Assembly: GCA_944377305.1 (NCBI GenBank)
Contig: CALWEL010000005.1
Span: forward strand, 5,149 to 69,148
Direction of reading: 5' to 3'
Length of the DNA stretch: 64,000 bases
DNA from: an uncultured Clostridia bacterium
GTDB taxonomy: Bacteria > Bacillota > Clostridia > Christensenellales > UBA1242
In this document: positions 2,041 to 23,145 of the stretch, piece after piece
How positions within the stretch are numbered: position 1 is the first letter of the stretch
Layout of the letters: each line of letters begins with the position of its first letter
Program-made: the position numbers and the translations under genes
Notes under the pieces: generated by a model
The model's database searches: none
What the model was told of the DNA's origin: nothing
What the model saw: the letters and a program-made list of their open reading frames with translations, nothing else

Positions 2041-3970
2041 ATTCGTTATTTTTGGAATCAACATTATTATATTTATATATAGGATTTTCATATTGACCCT
2101 TATGCTTTGGTACTGAAAATTTGGCGAAGAAGTTAGACACAGATTGTTTGAATTTGTTGAATTTTGATTTTAAACTAGGTGTATTAGCATCTTTGTAGGT
2201 GTCAATATTTTTTTGCAATTTATTAAATTTTTCATTTGTTTTTTCGCTTTCTTGCTGTGCACTATTATGTGTAGCATTACCATTATTTACACTATCTGTA
2301 GCATTGTTTTGATTATTAGCATTGTTTACGTTTGGATTCAACACATTGTTTTGATTGTAATAATTCATTCCATAAGGATTGTTGTACATATAATTGTTAG
2401 CATAAGGATATCCGCTTCTTCCATATAAAAATTCATTATCTAATAGTGCAGTATTAAAAAAGGTGTCAGTATTTTTAAAATTATTCCCATAAGTATCAAT
2501 ATTTGAATTGAAGCGTCTATTGTTGTAGGTGTCGACATTATTTAATTTTGAATTTCTTGTCGTTCGTGCATTTTGTATGGTGTTTGAGTCGTCAACATTA
2601 TTTGGATTTTGAATATTATCGTTTATTAGTGTGTCAGGATTTTTGGAATTCATCTGAGTAGTTGAATTAGATTCTTCATCACTATTTATTTTATTTTCTT
2701 CCTTATCTTCATTTGAGTTTGAAGAATTATTTTCTACAATTTGACCATCTTCTTTTATTAAATAATCTTTAATGATAGGAAGTTCCTTATTTCGTCTAAA
2801 ACCATATAAAATTCTTCCTCTGTTATTTGGCTCAATATTTGAATTAATATCAAATAAACTATTAATCATATTCAATGATTGAAGTCCATTTTCTAATAAT
2901 TCATTTCCATTGATTAGATTATCTAAAACTATCAAATATTTCAAAGATAAACTATCTATATCGTTGACATTTTTTTGAGTAAATGTTGATATATCTGCTA
3001 GACTTAAAGATAATTCACGCGTGACAGCAGATAGTCGACGTCCCAAATTTTTCAATTGTTCTGATTGTTCAGATAGGAATATTTTTTGTTCCGCAGTCAA
3101 TTCGATTTCTTTCAATTGAAGTTTTGATATCAAATTTTGAGTTTCAATTATTGCATTCACGATTCGTTCTTTTAATTCACAAAATTCATCACAAGAATCT
3201 TCTATATCAGATGAAAGAGAATAAAGCGTGGATATCTGCGAACTATCATTATCAGTATCTTCGCCCGAATTTTCATTAGTAACAACATCTTCGTTGATAT
3301 CTGTTTCGTTTAAATCGGAAGTATCTATAATGCTGTCATTATTGCTATTATTTTCCTCTTGTACGTTCATAAGATTGATATTATCTTTTTTATCTAAAGT
3401 TTCAGACTCTACATCTATTATTCTTTGTTTTCTAATTTCTCTATTTTCACTCATATTTTGCAAATTTTTTGATTTTTCATTAGAGTCATTTTGAATAGGA
3501 TAGATAGTTATATCTTTTTGTATGATATCATTATTATGATTTAAGTTGTTTTGATTTTCTGTTATTAGCTTTTCATTAGTGTTGATTGCTGACAATTCGT
3601 TGCTTTCCTTAATATCAATTTGGTTTTTGTTTGTATTATTTACACTCTCATTAGCAATTTCTTTGATTTTATTATCATTGCTGATATCGTTTGTTCTTTC
3701 GATTATTGACTTATTTTGTGATTGATTTTTTGAATCATTAGAATTCACTAATCTCGCATTGATTGGTGAAGAAACTAATAATTCATATTTATTTAATGCT
3801 ATTTTTGTCAATGATTCACTTCCATTTTTAGTATAATTATCTACTGTAGTCTGAAAATTGTTGATACTGTTTAATAAATCATTTGAATTTACTTTGACAG
3901 GTGAATTAGCACATCCTGTCAACATAATTCCAGCACTTAATATTGATAATATCGGTATAATTTTTTTCAT
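2027..3970 (-). CDS. Asn-rich lipoprotein with central coiled-coil-like segment, unknown function
   Basis: Start moved to MKKIIPILSILSAGIMLTGC (lipobox LTGC) preceded by AAGGAGA RBS; long low-complexity N/D/S/E tracts; 3' end overlaps sigF 3' end by 14 nt. Confidence 0.7.
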   Translation of the reverse strand: MKKIIPILSILSAGIMLTGCANSPVKVNSNDLLNSINNFQTTVDNYTKNGSESLTKIALNKYELLVSSPINARLVNSNDSKNQSQNKSIIERTNDISNDNKIKEIANESVNNTNKNQIDIKESNELSAINTNEKLITENQNNLNHNNDIIQKDITIYPIQNDSNEKSKNLQNMSENREIRKQRIIDVESETLDKKDNINLMNVQEENNSNNDSIIDTSDLNETDINEDVVTNENSGEDTDNDSSQISTLYSLSSDIEDSCDEFCELKERIVNAIIETQNLISKLQLKEIELTAEQKIFLSEQSEQLKNLGRRLSAVTRELSLSLADISTFTQKNVNDIDSLSLKYLIVLDNLINGNELLENGLQSLNMINSLFDINSNIEPNNRGRILYGFRRNKELPIIKDYLIKEDGQIVENNSSNSNEDKEENKINSDEESNSTTQMNSKNPDTLINDNIQNPNNVDDSNTIQNARTTRNSKLNNVDTYNNRRFNSNIDTYGNNFKNTDTFFNTALLDNEFLYGRSGYPYANNYMYNNPYGMNYYNQNNVLNPNVNNANNQNNATDSVNNGNATHNSAQQESEKTNEKFNKLQKNIDTYKDANTPSLKSKFNKFKQSVSNFFAKFSVPKHKGQYENPIYKYNNVDSKNNESKQP

Positions 3971-4107
3971 AATTTCTCCTTTACTATCGTTAGTATGTAT
4001 AAATTTAATATAAATATTTAAACTTTTCAAAAATTTTCCTACTTTTCCTATTTATATTAAGGTTTATATTTTATTTTTTATGTTAATAATCTGTTAGGAG
4101 AAAAATT

Positions 4108-4554
4108 ATGGATAAAGAAAAAAGAAATGTAAATTATAATATTTATGTGGAATCAAAAGTCCCTAAAACACGTGCTTGGCCCTCACTTATCAAGGCATTT
4201 ATACTTGGTGGAGCTATATGTGCTATAGGACAGGGATTTTTTGATCTATACACTTATTTTTTCCCAAGTCTCAGTGAAAGCGAAGTCAGTACTTGTATGC
4301 TTATGACCATAATATTTATTACTTGTCTGCTAACAGGCATCGGAGTTTATGATGTAATCGGTGCTTGGGGCGGAGCTGGTTCTGTGATACCGATCACTGG
4401 ATTTTCTAATTCAATATCTAGCCCAGCTATAGAATTCAAAAAAGAAGGGATAATATATGGTATTTGTGTCAAAATGTTTACTATTGCAGGACCTGTAATT
4501 GTCTGTGGTGTAGTAGGATCAATAATTTGCGGTTTCATAGGATATTTTATATAG
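4108..4554 (+). CDS. spoVAC: stage V sporulation protein AC
   Basis: 148 aa, 4 TM membrane protein, typical SpoVAC sequence (GGAICAIGQ..., GAGSVIPITGF); RBS AGGAGA; followed by spoVAD/AE. Confidence 0.9.
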   Translation: MDKEKRNVNYNIYVESKVPKTRAWPSLIKAFILGGAICAIGQGFFDLYTYFFPSLSESEVSTCMLMTIIFITCLLTGIGVYDVIGAWGGAGSVIPITGFSNSISSPAIEFKKEGIIYGICVKMFTIAGPVIVCGVVGSIICGFIGYFI

Positions 4555-4572
4555 GATTGTGGTAAGAAAATT

Positions 4573-5682
4573 ATGCAAACATATAAGTTGAAAAATAAGG
4601 TTTATATCCTTGAGGGATTTAGTATGGTTGGACCATTGGAAGGGAAAGGACCATTAAAAGATTATTTCGATTATATCATTCAGGATGACACTTTGAAAGA
4701 AAAAACATTTGAAAAATCAGAGCGAAAACTATTATACGATTTAATCATAAATGCTGTTGATAAGGCTGGACTGAAGATGTCCGATATAGATTTTTTCATA
4801 GGTGGAGATTTGCTTAATCAAATAGTCAGTTCATCTTTTGCCGCACGTGAATTGAATTTGCCATTTATAGGTTTGTATTCAGCCTGTGCCACTATGACAG
4901 AATCTCTGGCCATCAGCGGAATATTTGTCGACAACAAAATAGCTAATAATATTGTTGCCTCAACTTGCACTCATTTTAGCAGTGCAGAACGACAATATAG
5001 ATTTCCATTGGAACTTGGAAACCAGCGCCCGCCCACAGCACAATGGACTATAACTGGTGGCGGAGCAAGCATCGTATCAAATATTCCAAGCAAAATACGT
5101 ATTAATGCTGTCACCTTTGGAAAAGTTATAGATTACGGAATTTCGGATGTTAATAATATGGGAGCTGCTATGGCACCTGCCGCTTGTGATACCATCAAAC
5201 TACATCTTAAGAATACCAACCATAAAGTTTCAGATTATGACATCATATTAACTGGAGATTTAGGGAAGCTGGGTAGTGAAATACTGATCGACCTTATGGA
5301 ACACGAAAATATTATTTTAGGTCAGAATTATTCAGACTGCGGATGTATGATATATGATAAATCAGAGCGAGTATTTATGGGAGGAAGTGGTGCAGGTTGT
5401 AGTGCTAGCGTGCTAAATTCTTATGTTTTATACAAAATGAAGAAGGGAGATTTTAAACGCGTTTTAGTTGTGTCCACTGGGGCACTGATGAGCACAACCA
5501 CATCTCAACAAGGTGATACCATTCCTGGCATTGCACACGCTGTAGAACTTGTATTTAATGATTTAGATGCTGAAAAGAATCGCAAAAAAATGGGTGAGAC
5601 ATCGCGTTTGAAAAGAAAGGAAGATGTAAAACCTTTATCTAATCTCAAAAAAACTGATAAGAAAAAAAGTAAAATAAATTGA
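4573..5682 (+). CDS. spoVAD: stage V sporulation protein AD (thiolase-like fold) with Lys-rich C-terminal tail
   Basis: 369 aa; SpoVAD-like throughout (GGDLLNQ, YSACAT, GGSGAGCSA); position in spoVA operon. Confidence 0.9.
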   Translation: MQTYKLKNKVYILEGFSMVGPLEGKGPLKDYFDYIIQDDTLKEKTFEKSERKLLYDLIINAVDKAGLKMSDIDFFIGGDLLNQIVSSSFAARELNLPFIGLYSACATMTESLAISGIFVDNKIANNIVASTCTHFSSAERQYRFPLELGNQRPPTAQWTITGGGASIVSNIPSKIRINAVTFGKVIDYGISDVNNMGAAMAPAACDTIKLHLKNTNHKVSDYDIILTGDLGKLGSEILIDLMEHENIILGQNYSDCGCMIYDKSERVFMGGSGAGCSASVLNSYVLYKMKKGDFKRVLVVSTGALMSTTTSQQGDTIPGIAHAVELVFNDLDAEKNRKKMGETSRLKRKEDVKPLSNLKKTDKKKSKIN

Positions 5683-5790
5683 AATATATTTTAAAATTAA
5701 TGCAATTAAAACCAAATTTTAAATTATGTTACTGATTCAATTGCGATATATTGAAATTTAATTAAATAAAAAATGATAAAAGGAAAGAAA

Positions 5791-6168
5791 ATGATAAATA
5801 TATGGGATTACGTTATTTCTTTTTTAGTAGGTGGATTTATATGTTTTTTAGCACAAATTCTAGTAATTAGGACAAAAATTACAACAGCTAGAATTTTGGT
5901 GTTATTTTTGATAATAGGTATGATATTAGAAGTATTCAATATTTATGCTCCGTTCAAAGAATTCGCAAAAGCGGGTGCGACTGTGCCAATTATAGGTTTT
6001 GGAGCAAATCTTGCTCGTGGAGCCATTATGGCAGCGGAAGAAAAAGGAATAATTGGCATATTTACGGGTGGATTGACAGCGTCAGCGGGCGGTATTGCTA
6101 TGGCAATTTTTGCATCATTTATATTTGCTCTAATATTTAGTAGCAAATCAAAACGAGGTGGACATTGA
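5791..6168 (+). CDS. spoVAE: stage V sporulation protein AE (AEb type)
   Basis: Start moved to ATG 5791 (RBS AAAGGAAAG); small 4-TM protein, GATVPIIGFGANLARG motif typical of SpoVAC/AEb family. Confidence 0.85.
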   Translation: MINIWDYVISFLVGGFICFLAQILVIRTKITTARILVLFLIIGMILEVFNIYAPFKEFAKAGATVPIIGFGANLARGAIMAAEEKGIIGIFTGGLTASAGGIAMAIFASFIFALIFSSKSKRGGH

Positions 6169-6388
6169 AATAAATCGATAACTTTATAAAATTCTAAATT
6201 AGATATAATTTTTTGCTACTTACCTTACCCAAATTATTTAATAATAACACTATAGTGATACTAAATCTTAAATAATATAGTGGCTATATATTGTTTTAAT
6301 AAAATATATTGATTTTCATTTGATCTACTATTTATAAATTATTTAGTCGAAATCAAAATAATTATAAAATACATTAATAGATTATATT

Positions 6389-7045
6389 ATGAAAAAGAAA
6401 AGATCCCATTGCAAAAAGAGTATCATAATCAAATTGACTATTGTTATCTTTTTAATAATATTTTTAATGTATTATTTTTTAGTTGTTAGTCCTGTTGTTA
6501 AAGCCTATACATCCGCTGAGACACGTGCAGTGACAGAAAAAGCGATTAATAGAGCTGTTAGCAATGTGATCAATCAATCTTTAAAATATGATTCGCTGAT
6601 AGATATAAGTTATACAACTAGTGGAGATATTGCGTCATTTACAGCCAATCAATTTGAGATTAATAGCATATCACGAGAGATAGTAGAACAGGCTCAAAAA
6701 GAAATGCAGACTTTAGGAAGTATGGGATTAAACATAAACTTGGGAACATTTTCAGGGATACCTTTTTTAATTGGCAGAGGCCCTGTCATTAATTTGAAGT
6801 TGACTCCAATAGGTGCTGTTAGTAGCAATTTTGAAAGTTTATTTGAATCAGTAGGGATCAATATGACAAAACACACATTATATTTATATATAAATGTACA
6901 TGTAAATATTGTACTTCCAATTAAATCGTATGATATATACACATCTAATCAAGTATTATTAGCCGAAAGCATTATTGTAGGCAAAGTGCCAGAAATATAT
7001 CTTAATGGATCTATTTTAGGAAAAACTTTAAATCTTGTTCCATAA
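6389..7045 (+). CDS. yunB: sporulation protein YunB
   Basis: 218 aa, N-terminal TM then YunB-like layout (GxxGxPFLxGRGPxI..., GINxTKH..., VGxVPEIY) compared from memory with B. subtilis YunB. Confidence 0.65.
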   Translation: MKKKRSHCKKSIIIKLTIVIFLIIFLMYYFLVVSPVVKAYTSAETRAVTEKAINRAVSNVINQSLKYDSLIDISYTTSGDIASFTANQFEINSISREIVEQAQKEMQTLGSMGLNINLGTFSGIPFLIGRGPVINLKLTPIGAVSSNFESLFESVGINMTKHTLYLYINVHVNIVLPIKSYDIYTSNQVLLAESIIVGKVPEIYLNGSILGKTLNLVP

Positions 7046-7058
7046 ATCTTTTAATATA

Positions 7059-7087
7059 TTGTAAAATTGTCAAAATTATGTTATAAT
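7059..7087 (+). promoter_or_regulatory. sigma-A type promoter TTGTAA-17-TGtTATAAT, 6 nt before ATG 7094 (leaderless arrangement)
   Basis: -35 7059..7064, extended -10 7079..7087; no Shine-Dalgarno between -10 and ATG. Confidence 0.6.
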
Positions 7088-7093
7088 ATAAAT

Positions 7094-8200
7094 ATGTTAT
7101 ATTTTGACAATGCGTCTACTACTAAAATTAGCAAGGAATCACTTGATAGTTACATTAGAGCGAGTGACGATTTTTTCAATCCCAGTTCATTATATTATCC
7201 GTCTGTGAAAGTGAAAAAAGCTATTGAAGACAGCAGAGAATATTTTTTGAAAAAGTTTAATGCAAAGCCAAAATCAACTTTCATCTTTACAGGTTCGGCA
7301 ACTGAAAGCAATAATACAGTTTTGCATTCGGTAATTACGAGAAAAGATAAAAAATATCTTATAGGTGGCGGGGAACATAGTTCAATATATGAAACTGCAA
7401 AAAAATATAAGGAAAGTGGCTATAACATTATATTTGTACCTTTACAAAAAAATGGCGGTGTAGATGTTGGCAAACTATTTGATCTGATAGACAAGGATGT
7501 TGCTTTTATTTCAATAATTCACGTCAGCAATGAAACAGGGGCTATTAATGATATAGAACATATAACTAAACAAGCAAAAGAAATCAATCCAAATATTCTA
7601 GTGCATTCCGATGGAGTACAAGCGGTAGGTAAAGTCAACATAGACCTATCAAAATTAGGCGTAGATTTCTATACAATATCTGCCCATAAAATCAAAGGAC
7701 CTAAAGGAATTGGCGGACTATTTATTTCAAATCCGAACAAATTAAAGCCATTTATCCTCGGCGGAGGACAAGAAATGAATTTTCGTTCAGGCACAGAAAA
7801 CACTCCAGCAATTTTCGCATTTAAGTCCGCTTTGGAAAATCTGAAAAAAATAGATTATACTCTTTATAAAAAAGAGATATTAGATAATCTTAATACTGAC
7901 TACTATCTAGTTTCGAAAGATAATTGTGTAGATAATATAATATCAATTTGCTTTAAAAATTTACGAGGTGAGACTATTGAGCACGTGATGGAGTCAAAGG
8001 GATATTTAATTGGCACAGGATCTGCGTGTAACAGCAAAGCAGGATATAATAGAGTGCTATCAGATATTGTAGAAAAAGATTATTTATCTGGAGCCATTAG
8101 AATTAGTTTTGATTATGATGTTTCTATCAATGATTGTATAAAAATGGCGCAAGCTCTTAATGAAACAATAAATGAATTAAATAAGAGGTTAAACAAATGA
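7094..8200 (+). CDS. cysteine desulfurase (class V aminotransferase, NifS/NifZ/IscS-like), ThiI partner
   Basis: Start moved to MLYFDNAST; PLP lysine SAHKIKGPKG, active-site GTGSACNS; 4-nt overlap with thiI. Confidence 0.85.
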   Translation: MLYFDNASTTKISKESLDSYIRASDDFFNPSSLYYPSVKVKKAIEDSREYFLKKFNAKPKSTFIFTGSATESNNTVLHSVITRKDKKYLIGGGEHSSIYETAKKYKESGYNIIFVPLQKNGGVDVGKLFDLIDKDVAFISIIHVSNETGAINDIEHITKQAKEINPNILVHSDGVQAVGKVNIDLSKLGVDFYTISAHKIKGPKGIGGLFISNPNKLKPFILGGGQEMNFRSGTENTPAIFAFKSALENLKKIDYTLYKKEILDNLNTDYYLVSKDNCVDNIISICFKNLRGETIEHVMESKGYLIGTGSACNSKAGYNRVLSDIVEKDYLSGAIRISFDYDVSINDCIKMAQALNETINELNKRLNK

Positions 8201-11603: not shown

Positions 11604-11640
11604 ATCCTTATTTATTTGACAAATAAGGATTGTTTTTTTA
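11604..11640 (+). terminator. hairpin + T-run, probable end of tRNA-Trp transcript
   Basis: 10-bp stem ATCCTTATTT / AAATAAGGAT followed by TGTTTTTTT. Confidence 0.6.
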
Positions 11641-11644
11641 TAAT
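11616..11644 (+). promoter_or_regulatory. promoter TTGACA-17-TATAAT, 7 nt before ATG 11652 (leaderless arrangement for rnhA)
   Basis: -35 in hairpin loop 11616..11621, -10 11639..11644; no SD. Confidence 0.5.
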
Positions 11645-11651
11645 AATGGTT

Positions 11652-12092
11652 ATGAAGAAGGTAACAATATATACAGATGGTGCGTGTAGCGGTAATCCTG
11701 GTGATGGAGGTTGGGGCGCTATATTATTTTATAAGGATGCAAAAAAAGAAATAAGTGGACATCAAGAAAATACCACAAACAATCAAATGGAATTGACTGC
11801 GGCTATCAAAGCCTTAGATTTATTAAAAGAACCTTGTCAGATTGATCTATACAGCGACAGCGCATATTTGATAAACGCATTTCGAGAAGATTGGATAACT
11901 AGATGGCAATTGAATGGATTTAGAAATAGCAACAAAAAACCAGTACAGAACTTAGAGTTATGGCATCAATTGATTGAATTAAATAATATGCACAAAATCA
12001 ATTGGATAAAAGTAAAAGGGCACGCAGATAATATATATAATAATAGATGCGATGAATTAGCTACTGGCGAAATAGCAAGGATGAAAAAATAG
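11652..12092 (+). CDS. rnhA: ribonuclease HI
   Basis: Start moved to MKKVTIYTDGACSGNPG; DEDD residues in TDGA, NNQMEL, SDSAY, NNRCDELA; alternative ATG 11646. Confidence 0.85.
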   Translation: MKKVTIYTDGACSGNPGDGGWGAILFYKDAKKEISGHQENTTNNQMELTAAIKALDLLKEPCQIDLYSDSAYLINAFREDWITRWQLNGFRNSNKKPVQNLELWHQLIELNNMHKINWIKVKGHADNIYNNRCDELATGEIARMKK

Positions 12093-12119
12093 GTAAATCA
12101 AATTGTTACCTATTTTTTT
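12085..12119. terminator. bidirectional terminator between rnhA and the convergent ABC permease
   Basis: 10-bp stem AAATAGGTAA / TTACCTATTT flanked by A-run and T-run. Confidence 0.75.
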
Positions 12120-12185: not shown

Positions 12186-13937
12186 TTATAATTCCTTTTT
12201 CTTGAATAATATTGAACCTAAAACATTAGCAATAATTATAAATAACAAAGTAACAGATATAGTTAATCCGATATTCGTACCCGCATAAACTTTTGCGCCT
12301 AAAAGAATATTTAGGAAATTATCTGACAAAGCATAATTTGAACTACCAAAGAGCGAATATAGTGAAATATGAGAGAACGGATAATATGCAAGCCAACTAT
12401 TTATACCACCTGCAAATACTGGTAATAATGTATTTAGAAGATAGAGTACCAACATAATAGTGACTGCGAAAAGATCAGATTTAAATAGGCAAGATAACAG
12501 CATAGCAATTGAAGCATAAACCATCAATTCTAAGAACATACTCAATAGATAAATCAATAGCATCACAATAGGGTGCATAGTGATAGCAGTTGTACCATTA
12601 AATATTGTAAGAATAGTCAATGAATCAAAACCATACACCGCTCCGCCTACACACAAAGCAATTATTGCAGAAAATAAAATCATAATAATTGACATCAATA
12701 AGATAGCAAATAATTTACCGAAGAATAATTTTATTCTACCAACAGGGCGAATTGCCAGATATCTCATTGATCCTTCTTTTATTTCTCCTGCAATAGAGTG
12801 GCAAGCTGTCATCACTGCGTATACTATAATTATAAAAGAAAATAACTTTAAGATAAAATATGCATAGTCATATGCATTCGTTTCGTGATTTGATGTAACG
12901 CCAATTGTGAGAGGATGCGCATAATCATTTTCCGTCTTGCCATTTTCAAATAAATATGTATATCTAATTAATAATGAATCTGAATTGTATTGCGATTGAT
13001 TAGTTAAGTACATAAGATCTAGTTGATCATTGGTATTGACTACTGAAAAAGCATTTGACAATAATTCATAATTTACAAGATTAATAAAAGTATCCGCTGT
13101 ATTAATATATAAATTAATTAATCTTATCATCTCATCTTTTGAACTAATACTTTGATTTGTTTCTGAATCAAATTGTGCTAAATCTCTTAACTCATATATG
13201 TCTGTAATGATCTCTTGCATTCTAGCATTGATTGTTGAATATTTTGTTCCTTCTATGTTTGCTGAATAATCTTCAATAAAATCATCGCTTACATTAGGAT
13301 ATTTAAAATTGTCTATTGAACTGATAAATTCATCTTTAAAATTATCTTCGTATTCTTTGCATATCTCTGCAATGGTTGTCCTATTTGATTCAGTAACTGT
13401 AACATCAAAATTATTATACACATACTCATAATATTCTTCATAAGTGTTAAAATTTGAAGTAGTGGTAAGAATTGTATATGCTCCGTTTTGTGCATTGTTT
13501 ATACCTATATTGATTGCATTATTTAGATTGATTAAACTTTGCAACAAATTGGTTTTATTTGTACTAATCGTATTAGAACTAGATGAATCATAAGCGCAAT
13601 TCCTATAAGCCGAAAAGTTTGTCTCAAATTGATTAACTAATTCATTTATATGATCCTTAAATGTGACACCATTAATTCTATATAAAGTTACTGGGTAAGA
13701 AGCGTTCTCAATATTATCGTCTACATCATATTTGATACCAGCATTCAATCCACCATCAAATTGATTATAGATATCTAAAACGGTATCACCTTGTAAATTA
13801 ACCGAAGTATCTTGATATACTGTAGGTCTATATATAAAAACACCTAAAACTAATATTACTGCAAGCAAAATAGCCAGTATATAGATACCTGGCTTGGATA
13901 CCATTTTCTTTATCTCTGCTGAAACAACTTTAAACAT
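12186..13937 (-). CDS. ABC-2 type transporter permease with about 330-aa extracytoplasmic loop after TM1
   Basis: 583 aa; one N-terminal TM, long Asn/Tyr-rich soluble segment, then 5-6 TM; directly downstream of ABC ATPase. Confidence 0.7.
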   Translation of the reverse strand: MFKVVSAEIKKMVSKPGIYILAILLAVILVLGVFIYRPTVYQDTSVNLQGDTVLDIYNQFDGGLNAGIKYDVDDNIENASYPVTLYRINGVTFKDHINELVNQFETNFSAYRNCAYDSSSSNTISTNKTNLLQSLINLNNAINIGINNAQNGAYTILTTTSNFNTYEEYYEYVYNNFDVTVTESNRTTIAEICKEYEDNFKDEFISSIDNFKYPNVSDDFIEDYSANIEGTKYSTINARMQEIITDIYELRDLAQFDSETNQSISSKDEMIRLINLYINTADTFINLVNYELLSNAFSVVNTNDQLDLMYLTNQSQYNSDSLLIRYTYLFENGKTENDYAHPLTIGVTSNHETNAYDYAYFILKLFSFIIIVYAVMTACHSIAGEIKEGSMRYLAIRPVGRIKLFFGKLFAILLMSIIMILFSAIIALCVGGAVYGFDSLTILTIFNGTTAITMHPIVMLLIYLLSMFLELMVYASIAMLLSCLFKSDLFAVTIMLVLYLLNTLLPVFAGGINSWLAYYPFSHISLYSLFGSSNYALSDNFLNILLGAKVYAGTNIGLTISVTLLFIIIANVLGSILFKKKEL

Positions 13938-16297: not shown

Positions 16298-16882
16298 TTA
16301 AAATTTATTTCTAATCAATCCGACAACTTTCCCTAAAATTTCTACGTGATCAGTGATAATAGGACGCATTAATGAATTTTCTGGTTGCAAACGGAAATAG
16401 GCATTTTCTTTATAATATCGTTTTACAGTTGCTTCATTGTCGATCAAACACGCAACAATTTCTCCATTATTTGCTACTGATTGTTTGGATATCACAACAT
16501 AATCGTCATTATATATGCCTATATTGATCATACTGTCACCTTTGACTTTTAATATGAACATATTAGTACCAGAAAATAAATTTTCAGATACTATAACTTT
16601 ATCAAGCAAAGTCTCTTCGGCCAATATTGGTTGACCAGCCGCAATAACACCAACAACTGGTAGTGTGATATTGTTCATTGATTTATCTACCAATTCAATT
16701 GCTCGATTTTTATTGACTGAACGAGTTATTTTACCCATTTTTTCCAATTTTTTCAAATGATAAACCGCACTTGATGTTGAATCTAAATTTAGTTTATTGC
16801 AAATTTCTCTAATGGTAGGGGGGTATTTTTTATCTTCTAAATAAGAAACGATAAAATTATAAGTTTCTAACGTTTTATCCAT
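16298..16882 (-). CDS. lexA: LexA repressor (S24 peptidase)
   Basis: Start moved to MDKTLETYNF (RBS AGGAG 10 nt upstream); wHTH N-terminus, cleavage region VIAAGQP, VKGDSM and catalytic Lys region ATVKRY. Confidence 0.9.
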   Translation of the reverse strand: MDKTLETYNFIVSYLEDKKYPPTIREICNKLNLDSTSSAVYHLKKLEKMGKITRSVNKNRAIELVDKSMNNITLPVVGVIAAGQPILAEETLLDKVIVSENLFSGTNMFILKVKGDSMINIGIYNDDYVVISKQSVANNGEIVACLIDNEATVKRYYKENAYFRLQPENSLMRPIITDHVEILGKVVGLIRNKF

Positions 16883-16928
16883 AAATCTTAAACTCCTATT
16901 ATAGGATAACAAAATATAAAACATTTGT

Positions 16929-17086: not shown

Positions 17087-18133
17087 CTAATCTTGATTTA
17101 ATTTTACTTTCCCCGCTACAGATCGCCTTATGTCTTCACTAATAGCTGCATAATGCTTTTTAGTAGTATTCACATCTTTGTGTCCTAAAACTTCTGCTAC
17201 AATGTATATATCTTTTGTTTGATTGTATAAATTGGTACCATAGGTTGATCGTAATTTATGTGGTGTAATATTTTTCAATGGAGTAGCTATTTTAGCATAT
17301 TTCTTTACTAAATATTCCACTGCGCGTACTCCTAAACGTTTTCCTTGACTAGATATAAAGAGTGCACGCTCTTCCTTTGGAAGGTTCAAACTTTCGCGAT
17401 AATGTAAATATCCTTTCAAAATATCTGCAGTTTCTTCACCAAAATATAAAATTACTTGATTACCTCCTTTTCTGGTCACACGAAAAGAATTTAGATTAAA
17501 ATTTATATCATCTATATTTAAGCCTACACATTCGCTAACACGTATACCTGTTGTCAAAAACAAGAATAATATTGCGTTATCACGAATTTTAAACTTTTCA
17601 TTATACTTTTGCTGATGATTTGAAAATCCTGATAGCGTGTCACAAGAGTAGAGTAATTCAGCTGTCTCTTGAGGTTCTAAGCGAATAATAGGTTTGTCGT
17701 GCAATTTCGGAGAAGAAACTTTTGAAGCAACGTTTGCTTTAATCATATCTTTATTAAATAGATATTTAAAAAATGCTCTGAGACTAGACAACTTCCTCAA
17801 TTTCCCACGTTCACCATTTGTAATGACTTCGCCATTGTCCTTGTCGTAATAAGATAAATAAGCCATATATCGTTCAATTAAATGTGAGTCTATTTTGTCA
17901 ACGTCATTAGTCGTGATATCCATTATTCTTTTATTGAAACATATTGTTTCATACGTCACTAGATAATTGAAAAATGTCTTTAAATCACTAGCATAATTTA
18001 ATCTTGTTAGTGGGGTAGTAGTGTCTTGAATCGAAATAAAAAATGTACTGCAAAAGGGCGGTAGTTCAGTCAATAGTTCATTTAATTTTCGCATATTTTT
18101 TCGATTTCTATCTAGATAATAATTATTTGACAT
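17087..18133 (-). CDS. tyrosine recombinase (Xer/phage-integrase family; XerS-like size and motifs)
   Basis: 348 aa; catalytic pattern R (TTGIRVSE), HKLRST (H-x-x-R), LGHKDVNTTKKHY (H...Y); VTRKGG motif; RBS GAGG. Confidence 0.85.
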   Translation of the reverse strand: MSNNYYLDRNRKNMRKLNELLTELPPFCSTFFISIQDTTTPLTRLNYASDLKTFFNYLVTYETICFNKRIMDITTNDVDKIDSHLIERYMAYLSYYDKDNGEVITNGERGKLRKLSSLRAFFKYLFNKDMIKANVASKVSSPKLHDKPIIRLEPQETAELLYSCDTLSGFSNHQQKYNEKFKIRDNAILFLFLTTGIRVSECVGLNIDDINFNLNSFRVTRKGGNQVILYFGEETADILKGYLHYRESLNLPKEERALFISSQGKRLGVRAVEYLVKKYAKIATPLKNITPHKLRSTYGTNLYNQTKDIYIVAEVLGHKDVNTTKKHYAAISEDIRRSVAGKVKLNQD

Positions 18134-18226
18134 ATCAATACCTCTTTATATATTAATTATTATATCAAATCTTTGCGTAAAAAACTAACATTTTTAAATA
18201 TTTTTATTATTTTTATTAAAAATAAG

Positions 18227-18261: not shown

Positions 18262-18487
18262 AGTTTAATATGTCGATGATAGGGACTAGCATATTATGAA
18301 AGTGCGAGAGAGTTTGCGGTTGGTGAAAGCAAATCACGGTAGTATTATGCGTCTACCCCTTAGACACTCGTTAACGCGAGGCTGATTGCATAGCACAATT
18401 TGCAAAAAAGAGTGGGGCGTTTTACGCTCAAATAGAGTGGCACAGTGGTAAATATCACCTCTAAAAATATGTGGGTGATATTTTTTG
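18262..18487 (+). promoter_or_regulatory. T-box leader (tRNA-Ser responsive) with terminator
   Basis: AGAGAG and GGTGAAAG stem I elements, candidate specifier TCT followed by A (about 18353..18356), T-box AATAGAGTGGCACAGTGG, terminator ATATCACC/GGTGATAT + T6 at 18452..18486. Confidence 0.8.
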
Positions 18488-18503
18488 TTTAAAAGGAGAA
18501 ATT

Positions 18504-19790
18504 ATGATAGATATAAATTTAATTAGAACAAACCCTGATTTAGTAAAGGAAAACATCAAAAAGAAATTTCAAAATCACAAACTTCATTTAGTTGATGATG
18601 TACTTAAGATGGATTCTAAAGTGCGAATTTTGAAACAAGAAGGTGATGAATTACGTGCCAAACGTAATATATTGTCTCAGCATATTGGTACATTAATGAA
18701 AGCAAAGCAAATTAGCGAAGCTAATAAAATTAAAGAACAAGTAGTTAAAAACAATGAACGTATTGAGGTAATTGAAAAAGAAGTTTCCGAGCTTGACAAC
18801 AAAATCAAACAATCAATGATGAACATACCAAATATTATCGCAAACGATGTGCCTATAGGTGAAGACGATAGATACAATGTGCAAGAAAAAACATTTTTAG
18901 AGCCCAAAGTGCCAGATTTTGAAATCCCATATCACACAGATATTTTAGAAAAATTAAATGGGTTAGACATTGATAGTGCCAGAAGAACTTCAGGACAAGG
19001 GTTTTATTATTTGACAGGAGATATAGCTAGGCTTCATAGTGCTATTCTTTCTTATGCACGTGACTTTATGATAAATAAAGGCTTTACCTATGTAATACCT
19101 CCATTTATGATTCGTAGTGATGTAGTCAAAGGCGTGATGAGTTTTGAAGAAATGGACAATATGATGTACAAAATCGAAGGCGAAGATTTATATCTCATTG
19201 GTACCAGTGAACATTCTATGATTGGACGATTTATGAACACTATTATACCAGAAGAGAAATTGCCTATAACCTTGACATCTTATAGTCCTTGTTTTCGAAA
19301 AGAAAAGGGTGCTCACGGTATAGAGGAGCGCGGGGTTTATCGTATCCATCAATTTGAAAAACAAGAAATGATCGTAATTTGTAAACCAGATGAAAGTGAA
19401 GATTGGTACAATAAGATGTGGAACTATTCAGTAGAATTGTTTGTCTCTATGGAAATCCCAGTAAGAACTCTTGTATGTTGTTCAGGAGATTTGGCAGATT
19501 TGAAATATCGTAGCCTTGACGTAGAAGCTTGGAGCCCAAGACAGAAAAAATATTTTGAAGTTTGTTCTTGTAGTAATCTGACAGATGCGCAAGCTAGAAG
19601 ATTAGGCATCAGATATAAAACAGATAAGGGCAATAAATTTGCTCATACATTGAATAATACTGTTGTAGCACCTCCTAGAATGCTAATTGCATTTGTTGAA
19701 AATCATCTTCAAAAAGACGGTTCAGTTACAATTCCAGAAGTTTTGTGGCAATATATGGGAGGTACTAAAATCATTAAACCAAAGAAGTAA
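18504..19790 (+). CDS. serS: serine--tRNA ligase
   Basis: Start moved to MIDINLIRTNPD (RBS AAGGAGA); coiled-coil arm then class II core (FRKEKGAHG, GDLADLKYR...). Confidence 0.95.
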   Translation: MIDINLIRTNPDLVKENIKKKFQNHKLHLVDDVLKMDSKVRILKQEGDELRAKRNILSQHIGTLMKAKQISEANKIKEQVVKNNERIEVIEKEVSELDNKIKQSMMNIPNIIANDVPIGEDDRYNVQEKTFLEPKVPDFEIPYHTDILEKLNGLDIDSARRTSGQGFYYLTGDIARLHSAILSYARDFMINKGFTYVIPPFMIRSDVVKGVMSFEEMDNMMYKIEGEDLYLIGTSEHSMIGRFMNTIIPEEKLPITLTSYSPCFRKEKGAHGIEERGVYRIHQFEKQEMIVICKPDESEDWYNKMWNYSVELFVSMEIPVRTLVCCSGDLADLKYRSLDVEAWSPRQKKYFEVCSCSNLTDAQARRLGIRYKTDKGNKFAHTLNNTVVAPPRMLIAFVENHLQKDGSVTIPEVLWQYMGGTKIIKPKK

Positions 19791-19928: not shown

Positions 19929-20101
19929 CCGTGTAATAAATAAGGGTATGTAATTTAATGGATGAAGTTATTAAAAGACATTGATAAAACAGATTTTAAT
20001 AATGTACGAAGATATGGTAACGGTACCTTTCAACTTTAAAAAATTAAAAAAATTAATATCCTATTAATCATAATATAATAAATTGCAATTAGGAGTATAT
20101 A

Positions 20102-21166
20102 ATGATAAACATTGATAAAATTGTAAAACTTTATAGAAAAGATGGCATAACGAATAATCTAATCAAATTATTAAAAATTGATAAATCTAATGCCTTAAAC
20201 TTTAAACTTCTAAATCAGCTTCCAGATGATGTGAAAAACAATATTTTTAAAACTCTAAAATATTATCTCCTCCAACATTTATATGATAACTATCTTGATA
20301 ATGAATCTATAAAATTTTACCAAAATTTGAGCAAATCACAAATAGATTATTTAATTGAGCAAATTGATAGTCCAATTCATAAATATGGCGAAAGCGAACC
20401 TAAATTAATTGAGAATTTAAAAATCATTAATAATTTAGATAATGAGCAATTGTCACGATTATATAATATTATTTGTCAAGGGCGTCTTGGATACATATTG
20501 AAATATTATCCTTTATCAGATTTCAGCATTAAACAGATAAGCGAATTCGATAACATTTGTTTTGAAGATATAAATAATTGTGTCCATATAATGATCTATT
20601 TAATGCAAAAAAATATACATTCAGCATACAAGAAAGATTTGGAATTGAACGAAAGTATAGAGACAATCTATAAAAAAATTGCCTCACATTTTAGTTACAA
20701 AATGCTTGCAAGTTTAAAAAAATATGAAAACGAAAATTCATATTTGATAACTATATCATCTGAAGTCATTAAAATTTTATCTAAATATGTAAAAGAAAAT
20801 CAAATTGAAATTTGTTATAATGATTCTATCAATGTTAATGATTATTTGAGCATATTATATTTATTAAAAACTAATGCTAACTTAGATAGGAAAAAAGCTT
20901 ACTCTGTTATTTTAACAAACTGTAATTCGTGTGAAATAGCGACATATTTAAAACTTTTAAAAACTTCAGATTTATCTGAATCAGAATTTTATGGGCTAGT
21001 TAGACAGGCTGGAAAAAAATATAATGGGGCAAGTAGAGATATAATAGCTCAAATCGACAGATTCAACTTGCTCGAAAAGTCAATTAAACAATTGTATATA
21101 GATATGTTTATCAACCTTGATACCGCAACTGAACGTGCACGCGAAAGTATGCTTGATTTTGATTAA
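20102..21166 (+). CDS. hypothetical protein, predicted all-helical, no recognised domain
   Basis: 354-aa ORF with AGGAG RBS 7 nt upstream; no motif I can assign. Confidence 0.6.
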   Translation: MINIDKIVKLYRKDGITNNLIKLLKIDKSNALNFKLLNQLPDDVKNNIFKTLKYYLLQHLYDNYLDNESIKFYQNLSKSQIDYLIEQIDSPIHKYGESEPKLIENLKIINNLDNEQLSRLYNIICQGRLGYILKYYPLSDFSIKQISEFDNICFEDINNCVHIMIYLMQKNIHSAYKKDLELNESIETIYKKIASHFSYKMLASLKKYENENSYLITISSEVIKILSKYVKENQIEICYNDSINVNDYLSILYLLKTNANLDRKKAYSVILTNCNSCEIATYLKLLKTSDLSESEFYGLVRQAGKKYNGASRDIIAQIDRFNLLEKSIKQLYIDMFINLDTATERARESMLDFD

Positions 21167-21778
21167 TAAAAGATATCTAGATAACTTATTTTTTTAAAAT
21201 TAATGTGGATTTATAAATTCTCAAATTTACAGTTCATTATATAATAAAAACTATAAATAATATCAATTTAGAAATATATCAAGACCTACTTATTCGTCAA
21301 GAAAAAACGATAATTAATGTTAACATTCTATTTAGAAACCAAGTTCAATATTCTATTATTTGTTTTGCTTTCTTTTTATAGAGATTGTATATCTTGTAGG
21401 TTTTATTTTTCCGTATGAATTAAATATTCTTGTCTTAAAAAAATATCCATTAGACTATAAATATCAGAATTGGATAATTTTAGAGATGTTCAAAGCCTCT
21501 GCTAGATAAAAAGGATAAAAATACAATAAACAAATTTAATTTGCCTATTAATACATATAAGATATAAATTGAGAGATAGGGTAGAGTAAAATAATACAAA
21601 TTCAATCATCCAATAGCTAGAAAACTATGAATTAGACAAAAATAATAGAATAATAAGTGATGGATCTGTTTAATTGCAATGATTCCAAAAATAAAAGGAT
21701 TTAAAGTTTAAATTTAATATTAGAAATCTAGCATCATCTATAGCATTAGATTTTTTTTTAAATTTTTCAATTGAAATG

Positions 21779-21812
21779 GTTTTTTACGCAAAGATATCAA
21801 TTTTGATAAAAT
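21779..21812 (+). repeat. copy of the recombinase promoter/operator region (exact 17-mer GTTTTTTACGCAAAGAT plus TGATAAAAT extended -10)
   Basis: 17/17 identity with reverse complement of 18169..18185; both followed by TTGATA(T/A)AAT. Confidence 0.7.
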
Positions 21813-22228
21813 AGCAAAATTGACAGATAATCTATATCTTAGACAAATAAGTTAGATATAACGACAAGCAAGACAAAGTAGAATAAATATGAAATATGAT
21901 CCTATAGGAATTATTTAAAAATATCTATTGATTAATATAGAAAATAATTTTAGCAATGCCAGAATGCGCTGAGACGAATTCTAGATTAAAAAGATGAATA
22001 ATAGGTCATTAATAATATCAGAAATTATCGCTTATTTACATCAAACGAAATTTTAATTAAAACACTGGATTTTATATTTAAATTTAAATTGTGTATATAA
22101 ATCATAAACACAACAATATGTGGATAACTAAACAAATGATATGTCATAATATGTCATATATATGATTATAAAATCGTATCGGTGGATAAATTATATGATT
22201 TCCACAAGATTTTTTTCAATTTTTTGTT

Positions 22229-22264
22229 TATCTTTTCGCAAAAGAAGAGTTTTGCGAAAAGATA
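22229..22264. repeat. perfect 15-bp inverted repeat with 6-bp spacer (TATCTTTTCGCAAAA GAAGAG TTTTGCGAAAAGATA)
   Basis: arms are exact reverse complements; no flanking T-tract on either strand. Confidence 0.9.
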
Positions 22265-22533
22265 TGAATATAAATTTTTACATTGCCCCACATCAATCCA
22301 CAATTCAATTTTTAGTTAACTCTATTATATATTTATAAATATTTTGTTTCTTTTTTCCATTTACTACCCTATTAAGGTTCTAATCTCCTGATATTTTATC
22401 AATAAAAAACACTAATATGAATTATCATATTAATGCTTTTTATAAAATGTTATGTAAAAAATCGTATAGTACTATCTAGAGTAAACTTATGAAAACAAAC
22501 AAACACAAAATATTTACATAAGAAAAAATAAAT

Positions 22534-23109
22534 TTATCTTTCTTTGATTATTTCAACAACTTCAGCTTCGCCTTCAAATAAAATTTCAGTAACATTCTCA
22601 TCAGTTACATCAGTTTGAGTCCAATAATTATGTGCTTTGGCAATATAATCTTCAAAACTACCGCCGTCTCTGCCTAGTACGAAATTACCACTTTTAAAAA
22701 TTTTTCCGTTTAAATTAACCGCTATCACTTGCAAATGCTTCTCTCTACTTTTTTCATAATTATCAACAGCCGTTTGCTTATATAATGATAAATACATACA
22801 ATGCAATCTTGATGGTAAATCAGGATAAAAATTTTTTCTGACATTTTCTAATGCTAATTCCCTTACAAGTAAATCATAATTATCACATATGTATGCTATA
22901 CTCTCTGCGTGATTTTTAATTATTCCACGATTTTTCTTAAAATAATAAAAGATATCTGCGAGTCTTAAATTGTCGATTTGATATTTTGTTTGAAAGACCT
23001 TTTTATACTGCCCGGTAATGGTATTTTTATCAAAAATAATTTTATCACCTATTGAAAATTTTCTAGACTTAACAATTTGATACAAAATTAAATCCTTTAC
23101 TTTTTCCAT
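22534..23109 (-). CDS. hypothetical protein (191 aa), no recognised domain
   Basis: Start moved to MEKVKDLILYQ, 7 nt downstream of an extended -10; acidic C-terminus. Confidence 0.6.
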   Translation of the reverse strand: MEKVKDLILYQIVKSRKFSIGDKIIFDKNTITGQYKKVFQTKYQIDNLRLADIFYYFKKNRGIIKNHAESIAYICDNYDLLVRELALENVRKNFYPDLPSRLHCMYLSLYKQTAVDNYEKSREKHLQVIAVNLNGKIFKSGNFVLGRDGGSFEDYIAKAHNYWTQTDVTDENVTEILFEGEAEVVEIIKER

Positions 23110-23116
23110 ATTGTAT

Positions 23117-23145
23117 ATTATAACACAAATATAAAATTCAGACAA
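23117..23145 (-). promoter_or_regulatory. promoter TTGTCT-17-TGtTATAAT, 7 nt before ATG 23109 (leaderless arrangement)
   Basis: read on minus strand; no SD. Confidence 0.55.

Follow-up and report, generated by a model that had tools for sequence, protein, structure and literature searches.

A perfect palindrome in Clostridia as the likely core site of a single-recombinase Xer-type system exploited by microviruses

A perfect inverted repeat with a 6-bp spacer in an intergenic gap of an uncultured clostridial genome is likely to be the core site of a single-recombinase Xer-type system, most likely the dif site used for chromosome dimer resolution, that is exploited by integrase-less microviruses. 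The analysis covered 64 kb of the source genome (hereafter the window, with a G+C content of ~30%) and 8-21-kb pieces of other genomes, which are designated by L numbers where they have to be told apart. The features of the window that are relevant to this argument are the following:

16298-16924, minus strand: lexA, located beside the genes for a PadR-like regulator and the tyrosine recombinase
17087..18133, minus strand: Xer-like tyrosine recombinase of 348 aa, the presumed enzyme for the site (Pfam Phage_integrase, 1.4e-30)
18159..18182, minus strand: recombinase promoter, with the half-site TTTTACGCAAAGATT (18182->18168) abutting an extended -10 element TGATATAAT (18167->18159); candidate autoregulatory operator
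18471-19790, plus strand: serS, left of the gap
20102-21166, plus strand: gene for a 354-aa product without assignment, between serS and the gap
21782..21795, plus strand: isolated half-site resembling an arm, TTTTACGCAAAGAT, at a distance of 434 bp from the core and beside a degenerate partner arm
22181..22206, no strand assigned: serS-side flank, an inverted DnaA-box-like pair GGTGGATAA ... ATTTCCACA with invariant TGTGGA/TCCAC columns
22229..22264, no strand assigned: putative dif-like core recombination site, with arms 22229-22243 and 22250-22264 and the crossover spacer GAAGAG at 22244-22249
22281..22302, no strand assigned: Met-gamma-lyase-side flank CATTGCCCCACATCAATCCACA, the reverse complement of TGTGGA..TGGGGCAATG
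Right of the gap, all on the minus strand: DUF2441 gene, Met-gamma-lyase-like gene, miaA, mutL and mutS

The core reads TATCTTTTCGCAAAA-GAAGAG-TTTTGCGAAAAGATA; the arms are exact reverse complements and the spacer is asymmetric, precisely as described in a preceding sequence-only reading of this DNA. No other perfect inverted repeat in the window with a spacer of 3-10 bp is as long, and when the chance level was estimated from 40 first-order Markov simulations of the window, an arm of 15 bp was reached in none of these whereas 34 lacked any repeat of at least 12 bp. The 12-mer core of the arm, CTTTKCGYAAAA, occurs exactly four times in the window, namely in both arms, at position 18171 in the recombinase promoter and at position 21782. 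The same reading placed the palindrome in an ORF-free 1.37-kb gap between convergent genes and noted that it does not resemble an intrinsic terminator. Both statements hold: the gap (21167..22533) contains no ORF of at least 60 aa and the flanking genes converge, no T-tract follows the palindrome on either strand, and a consensus scan of 21100-22600 returned 0 terminator-like sites. The stem is A/U-rich, and if transcribed the palindrome is predicted to form a hairpin of about -18 kcal/mol, an energy that any perfect palindrome would give. There is no Rfam match at the palindrome, the only matches in the window being two tRNAs and a sub-threshold T-box; the latter, a leader upstream of serS at 18267-18465 on the plus strand (76.4 bits, E = 6e-16, under the Rfam gathering score of 93), is kept in an alignment of the relatives. 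The layout of the palindrome, with inverted arms around a centre within the 6-8 bp range in non-coding DNA, is the generic one of dif-type sites, and the same geometry is present in ~150 related loci.

Recombinase neighbourhoods were fetched from relatives with 81-86% identity between the recombinase proteins, and in every locus of sufficient length the same gap contains a single strong copy of the site (for example, TATCTTTGCGCAAAA-CTCTTC-TTTTGCGCAAAGATA in L005 and CATCTTTGCGTAAAA-CACTTC-TTTTACGCAAAGATG in L004). The intergenic DNA around the site has diverged among these genomes; the core is nearly invariant. The changes that do occur in the arms are paired: a position that is G/C in most relatives is T/A in the window, and L004 shows a second paired change. 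The earlier suggestion that the site should be looked for in relatives that keep the recombinase is thus answered by a single copy in the same place with concerted changes in both arms. The spacer varies by lineage (GCCTTC, CTCTTC, CAACAC, CACTTC, GCTGTA and others), whereas the spacer of classical dif sites is far less variable between lineages, a difference that speaks against a dif site.

A scan of 185,579 species genomes with the exact pattern CTTTKCGYAAAA-N6-TTTTRCGMAAAG yielded only 96 matching stretches, nearly all from metagenome-assembled genomes (MAGs) of Clostridia, Christensenellales or 'Onthoplasma'; the close homologs of the recombinase come from MAGs whose source labels read Clostridia, Clostridiales or 'Candidatus Onthoplasma'. 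The 96 matches are distributed over 95 assemblies, which are draft MAGs searched for the exact pattern only, so that the question of further copies raised by the sequence-only reading can be answered for exact matches: there is one site contig per assembly, with the exception of one mixed bin. The exception is assembly CANQZB01, which contains two versions of the serS-recombinase-lexA locus with the site (L068 and L096, recombinase identity 80% and 82%), most likely because two strains or species were binned together rather than because a genome carries two sites. In 80 of the 96 matches, the recombinase or syntenic genes (Met-gamma-lyase-like, miaA, mutL, serS, lexA) are found in the 8-kb block, and the remainder includes several lysogens or loci truncated by the block edge. 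About 9 matches, from Pasteurellaceae, Arcanobacterium, Bifidobacterium and others, were discarded as unrelated palindromes without the ATC/GAT outer bases or the syntenic context. Arm symmetry was found at the first variable (K/M) position in 92 of the 96 sites and at the second (Y/R) position in 82, counts that are uncorrected for phylogeny. The ATC...GAT bases, which lie beyond the imposed search pattern, are kept in ~85% of the matches, indicating that the arms are ~14-15 bp long.

The site is linked to the recombinase gene: it is located upstream of the 5' end of the recombinase gene in 47 of 47 genome loci. The distance in the window's family is 1.8-4.1 kb (median 2.3 kb) because serS is inserted between site and gene, compared with a median of 177 bp (range 50-1,257) in 29 distant relatives with recombinases 46-57% identical to that of the window. 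The arrangement of mutS-mutL-miaA, lexA and serS around the module is kept from 95% down to ~50% recombinase identity. In a site-blind metagenome sample of 80 loci, picked by the recombinase alone at 49-57% identity, 55 contain a co-varying 14-6-14 palindrome of the same family, always upstream of the recombinase, and none of 80 shuffles reaches the score; the loci without a palindrome mostly include little upstream sequence. The arms in this sample drift in a concerted manner, as in AACTATTCGCAAAA/TTTTGCGAATAGTT and AACTATTCGTTAAA/TTTAACGAATAGTT, and the variants track the recombinase lineages. Two further loci might represent more distant members of this module type outside the Christensenellales. 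In [Clostridium] aminophilum (L045), the same palindrome core at 7125-7154 lies 87 bp from a 35%-identical recombinase, and in Levilactobacillus angrenensis (L060) the palindrome core at 3390-3419, with arms that are perfect 18-mers, lies ~500 bp from a 28%-identical recombinase.

The recombinase itself is, by comparison with curated models, an Xer-type enzyme outside all curated Xer families. Its best NCBIfam match is XerS, with 181.2 bits over the full length, under the equivalog cutoff of 267 (NF003462), and the scores against XerC (TIGR02224; 165 bits, cutoff 335), XerD (TIGR02225; 157 bits, cutoff 330) and XerA (158 bits, cutoff 220) similarly remain under their cutoffs. The best PDB match is E. 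coli XerD (7.5e-21), and similarity to XerH (5JJV) is weak (E = 2e-7). The catalytic hexad is intact: none of R198, K222, H292, R295, H318 and Y328 varies among 18 homologs, and in the alignment these residues coincide with the catalytic motifs of XerD. A tblastn search of the 64-kb window detected no second tyrosine recombinase homolog, in agreement with the earlier statement that the only recombinase of the window is encoded 4.1 kb from the palindrome. The related half-site that had been noticed in the recombinase promoter is also present, as AATCTTTGCGTAAAA at 18168..18182, identical to an arm in 12 of 15 positions. The combination of this half-site with the adjoining TGnTAnAAT is shared by the window, L004, L005 and L009, with tandem half-sites in L007; in the distant relatives, the entire site occupies the promoter region of the recombinase gene. 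It is a reasonable inference that the recombinase represses its own gene through the promoter half-site. The lone half-site at 21782-21795 has an arm type (TTTTACGCAAAG) unlike the window's own arms, shares the 17-mer GTTTTTTACGCAAAGAT with the half-site in the recombinase promoter and is also present in the conspecific L117 (about 1750); it could be a remnant of an old junction of an IMEX (integrative mobile element exploiting Xer) or a duplicated operator.

TGTGGA/TCCACA boxes flank the core in the 42 loci of the family close to the window and are absent in 35 distant loci. The box columns are invariant amid diverged intergenic DNA, and a perfect TTATCCACA is found at 22119-22127 of the window. 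As described below, the boxes have also been copied by prophages, an observation that points to an accessory function in recombination. In the distant relatives, a motif that is G-rich or reads CCCCT occurs close to the core, but its side and strand vary, and it was dropped from consideration. The best promoter-like match in the gap (22190-22219, minus strand, TTGAAA-18-TATAAT, 11/12) adjoins the core, shares sequence with the TGTGGA box pair and is directed into an ORF-free AT-rich stretch; its -10 part is not kept in other relatives.

The decisive evidence comes from natural recombination products in the relatives, in the form of prophages located in the gap:

L003, 2401-7658: gokushovirus-like prophage in a Clostridia MAG
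L006, 2597-7937: gokushovirus-like prophage in a Clostridia MAG
L117, about 2271-7550: gokushovirus-like prophage in a Clostridia MAG

L003 and L004 encode an identical recombinase protein, as do L005 and L006, so that each lysogen can be compared with an empty site: the insert amounts to 5,294 bp in L003 (versus the empty L004) and 5,377 bp in L006 (versus the empty L005). The inserted genes encode the capsid protein F, a scaffold protein of the Chlamydia-phage type, ORF5, a DNA pilot protein and a replication initiator; there is no integrase among the prophage genes. Further lysogens are L022, L105, L109 and L276. Compared with the empty sites, the bacterial homology at one prophage end spans the left flank, the left arm and the spacer, and that at the other end spans the spacer, the right arm and the right flank; the remaining junction arms are phage-derived, one good (TATCTTTGCGCAAAA) and one degenerate (TTTTGCGAGTAAATT or CTTTACGCAAAAATT). 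This pattern at both ends is the signature of reciprocal exchange inside the 6-bp spacer, between an attB and an attP of the same arm-spacer-arm geometry. The window itself represents an unoccupied site, and the third comparison comes from its own species: L117, 97.5% identical to the window over 20044-22302, is a lysogen at the same site with the window's exact arms, in which a full palindrome is followed by the ~5.3-kb prophage and then by ACGTATTTCGAATGT-GAAGTG-TTTTGCGAAAAGATA and the bacterial flank. The crossover is within the spacer in each of the three comparisons. The flanking box is copied on the side of the good phage arm in L006, L117 and, more weakly, L003, and in L117 this flank copy forms a ~45-bp duplication at both prophage ends.

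Among 160 microvirus contigs retrieved by capsid similarity, a good attP mimic is confined to the closest relatives of the prophages (L131, L276, L212 and L031), with 3-5 mismatches to the arm consensus compared with at least 8 in every shuffle; most microviruses at ~40-50% capsid identity have no mimic. L131, a contig of 5,318 nt that is colinear with the L003 prophage (69% capsid identity) and has no bacterial flank, is a free microvirus genome with an intact attP, AACTATTCGTAAAA-TACAGA-TTTTACGAAAACAT, located in a non-coding stretch after Rep and differing from the consensus by 3 mismatches. The arm variant (AACTATTCG...) and the spacer of L131 both recur among independently found host variants, and the attP spacers match the spacers of the host lineages. 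An initial viral pattern scan gave 24 matches, of which L022 and L031 alone were relevant, the majority being unrelated palindromes on large contigs of phage origin. The elements seen in the relatives thus combine the features of IMEXs: they have no integrase of their own, carry a dif mimic and are integrated at the host site.

Skew and gene polarity at the site are terminus-like, although the picture within 64 kb is not a clean one. The minus strand carries 35 of the 36 genes right of the site; left of it, plus-strand genes outnumber minus-strand genes by 14 to 6. The plus-strand GC skew is positive left of the site and steadily negative to the right, and the cumulative G-C between 18 and 26 kb peaks locally at the repeat's edge (22266); over the whole window, however, it peaks at 12,093, because the genes at 12.2-18.1 kb form a minus-strand block. 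Skew at third codon positions shows strong polarity right of the site, with +0.14 for the minus-strand genes and -0.10 for the only plus-strand gene, and is flat on the left side (+0.02 and +0.04). The left-flank skew exceeds the right-flank skew in 52 of 54 related loci, which share synteny and hence are not independent. In CP091722.1 (2.27 Mb), the only closed chromosome among the matches, the site is at ~453.8 kb. An origin with a cluster of DnaA boxes was also considered and rejected: the window contains 28 such boxes versus 23 ± 5 expected, no more than chance would give, and the polarity of genes and skew is terminus-like rather than origin-like. The window-wide maximum of the cumulative G-C coincides with another perfect inverted repeat (13-bp arms, 9-bp spacer, 12084-12118) at the junction of the convergent genes 11616-12092 (plus) and 12186-13937 (minus), which is probably a bidirectional terminator.

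Several lineage-specific elements adjoin the site. The DUF2441 gene (22534-23145, minus strand), which separates the Met-gamma-lyase-like gene from the site, has matches to two PHROG families without assigned function and, among the fetched loci, is present only in L001, which is identical to the window across the genes compared, and the closely related L040. Being located where prophages insert relative to the site, it may be leftover mobile cargo. The 354-aa ORF (20102-21166, plus strand) has no match in Pfam, NCBIfam or PHROG and is confined to the closest relatives L001, L049 and L117. It is followed by ~1 kb of non-coding DNA with 24% G+C (21167-22180), and both separate serS from the site in the window's lineage.

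The main rival to the interpretation of the site and the adjacent gene as one system is that the site is a genuine dif-like site recognized by canonical XerC/XerD encoded elsewhere in the genome, the neighbouring recombinase having another job. The 64 kb in view leave room for such enzymes, and classical dif sites have been predicted in most Firmicutes, many Clostridia included, with the prediction failing for two Clostridium genomes (Kono et al.). Nevertheless, we regard this as unlikely, given that perfectly symmetric, co-varying arms suit one protein rather than two paralogs, that the invariable position of the site upstream of the neighbouring gene narrows to ~50-250 bp in most of the distant relatives, that the variant arms of the site-blind sample follow the lineages of this recombinase, that an arm half-site lies within its own promoter, and that there is no Bacillus-type dif in the 64-kb window, the best match being 19/28. 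Even less probable, in our estimate, is a reading in which the recombinase is the integrase, and the site the attachment site, of a mobile element, resident or domesticated, and not a housekeeping system for resolving dimers. Tyrosine recombinases beside their own sites are typical of integrative elements, and the DUF2441 gene with its PHROG matches and the 354-aa gene show that lineage-specific genes do adjoin the site; but the module is embedded among mutS-mutL-miaA, lexA and serS in an arrangement that persists from 95% down to ~50% recombinase identity, there is one site per assembly and no second att site that would bound an element, and the scores of the recombinase are those of an Xer-like protein rather than of a phage integrase that has an arm-binding domain.

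The remaining two explanations dispense with recombination as the function of the palindrome. That it is only a transcription-factor operator, whether for autoregulation of the recombinase or for PadR or LexA, with recombination being incidental, would fit the palindromic geometry, the arm-like half-sites at the recombinase promoter and the presence of the full site in the promoter region of distant relatives. We consider it very improbable in view of the precise spacer crossovers in at least 3 independent lysogens, the attP mimics on phage genomes and the 2-4 kb, with serS between, that separate site and recombinase in the window's family. The Gram-positive LexA box is GAAC-N4-GTTC; the palindrome presumably does not resemble it, and we count this against an operator as well. 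A transcript-end hairpin or bidirectional terminator, for its part, would be in keeping with the location between convergent genes and with the predicted fold, and the co-variation of the arms would equally preserve a hairpin. We give this explanation hardly any weight: there is neither a U-tract on either strand nor a terminator-like match in the gap, the fold energy is trivial for a perfect palindrome, the site of the distant relatives is upstream of the recombinase rather than at 3' ends, and the prophage junctions would be left unexplained.

The proposal of the sequence-only reading that the palindrome is the core site of a tyrosine recombinase is therefore supported by its conservation, the natural junctions with crossovers in the spacer, the linkage to the recombinase, the promoter half-site and, less cleanly, the terminus-like polarity. 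For the single-recombinase system that we favour, we propose a model in which the product of the gene at 17087-18133 would occupy each 14-15-bp arm as a monomer and exchange strands across the 6-bp spacer. We infer the identity of the enzyme, and a housekeeping role in resolving chromosome dimers near the replication terminus, at what would be a dif site, from the symmetric co-varying arms, the adjacency of site and gene, the Xer-type sequence, the single copy, the polarity and the IMEX precedent; FtsK might control the reaction. Given that the host site is always present, integrase-less gokushovirus-like microviruses would carry a mimic of it, composed of a good arm, a degenerate arm and a matching spacer and, in those of the window's family, also a copy of the flanking box, and would integrate as IMEXs using the host enzyme. 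After integration, the palindrome would be complete at the serS end, and the opposite end would be left with a crippled hybrid site. The promoter half-site next to the -10 element probably allows the recombinase to repress its own gene.

The single-recombinase systems listed in reviews and a 2022 paper are XerS, XerH, XerL and the archaeal XerA (PMC5357621; PMC9765430), and the module layout with the site beside the gene has been reported for xerS-difSL and xerH-difH (PMC5357621). One of the closest known systems is XerS/difSL of streptococci and lactococci (Le Bourgeois 2007, PMC1914069; PMC5357621), with which the module described here shares a single long (~350 aa) Xer-type recombinase, the organization of site and gene as one module (here adjacent in distant relatives) and A/T-rich arms of the TTTTC..GAAAA type, XerS also being the best NCBIfam match. 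Unlike a true XerS, however, the recombinase remains at 181 bits under the 267-bit equivalog cutoff, and difSL is a 31-bp site with imperfect, unequal arms and a ~11-bp centre (PMC5357621), in contrast to the perfect 14-15-bp arms and 6-bp spacer found here. The hosts of XerS are Lactobacillales as opposed to Clostridia, and in the window's family serS intervenes between site and gene. The XerH/difH system of Helicobacter and Campylobacter (PMC3325230, PMC5241119) similarly involves a single recombinase of ~355-360 aa, a site near the gene and inner arm ends of the GAAAA type, but the protein similarity is only weak (PDB 5JJV, E = 2e-7) and the arms of difH are imperfect and of other sequence. 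The classical XerC/XerD systems with a 28-bp dif (E. coli; CodV/RipX of B. subtilis) have in common with the Clostridia module the arm/6-bp spacer/arm layout, an Xer-family catalytic domain and a non-coding location in a region of convergent polarity. They differ in that the recombinase here is below the equivalog cutoffs and in that the arms are 14-15 bp and fully symmetric as opposed to 11 bp and partly symmetric; the Bacillus dif has no sequence resemblance to the Clostridia palindrome.

With regard to the mobile elements, there are two precedents. The XerL/dif system of Legionellales, which has been tested experimentally, was discovered through a mobile element with a dif mimic (PMC9765430), and like the present system it has a single recombinase and long uninterrupted inverted-repeat arms, with integration leaving one intact and one modified site; by contrast, XerL belongs to an unrelated recombinase lineage, its arms are 10-12 bp, xerL is more than 400 kb from dif in Legionella, and the exploiting element is LME-1 rather than a microvirus. 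Gokushovirus integration at dif through the host XerCD has been demonstrated experimentally in E. coli (PMC7062461), and integration at dif had been proposed earlier for Bacteroidetes proviruses (PMC3091885). These gokushovirus and alpavirus prophages resemble those described here in the lack of an integrase, the combination of one conserved and one degenerate arm, the insertion beside an intact bacterial dif and the restriction of the motif to some phage lineages. Their hosts, however, are Enterobacteriaceae and Bacteroidales with two recombinases and a 28-bp dif, as opposed to Clostridia with a palindromic site and apparently one recombinase, and the Clostridia phages additionally copy ~45 bp of flank. 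Predicted microvirus prophages were listed only for Bacteroidales, Hyphomicrobiales and Enterobacteriaceae in 2022 (PMC9753089), and in the open-access literature we found no description of the Clostridia module or of microvirus lysogeny in Clostridia. The module is thus the same kind of system as the known Xer/dif systems with IMEX exploitation and is distinct in its recombinase lineage, the fully symmetric long-armed site, the highly variable spacer and the flanking boxes that are copied by phages in one family.

Xer/dif systems are at the core of chromosome maintenance, and each single-recombinase family (XerS, XerH and XerL) has altered the ideas on directionality and FtsK control with one enzyme; the problem becomes extreme where, as here, the site is fully symmetric and its spacer highly variable. 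That gokushovirus-like microviruses can have a temperate lifestyle in Clostridia is directly evidenced by the prophages. Since these viruses, which are among the most abundant in the gut, are essentially without cultured hosts, the matching of attP to attB offers a practical host link. Cultivable Christensenella species could make the system accessible to experiment. A broader and more doubtful possibility, which we put forward tentatively, is that an order-level clade of Clostridia from the gut, comprising Christensenellales, 'Onthoplasma' and relatives, has this module as its sole dimer-resolution system, the core being flanked in the window's family by phage-copied DnaA-box-like accessory elements. 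If this were the case, the recombinase would represent a further independent single-recombinase Xer family beside XerS, XerH, XerL and XerA, recombination at a chromosomal dif site would be subject to control by accessory factors, and the rule that the attP arm and spacer equal those of the host dif would assign hosts to the abundant, uncultured gut microviruses.
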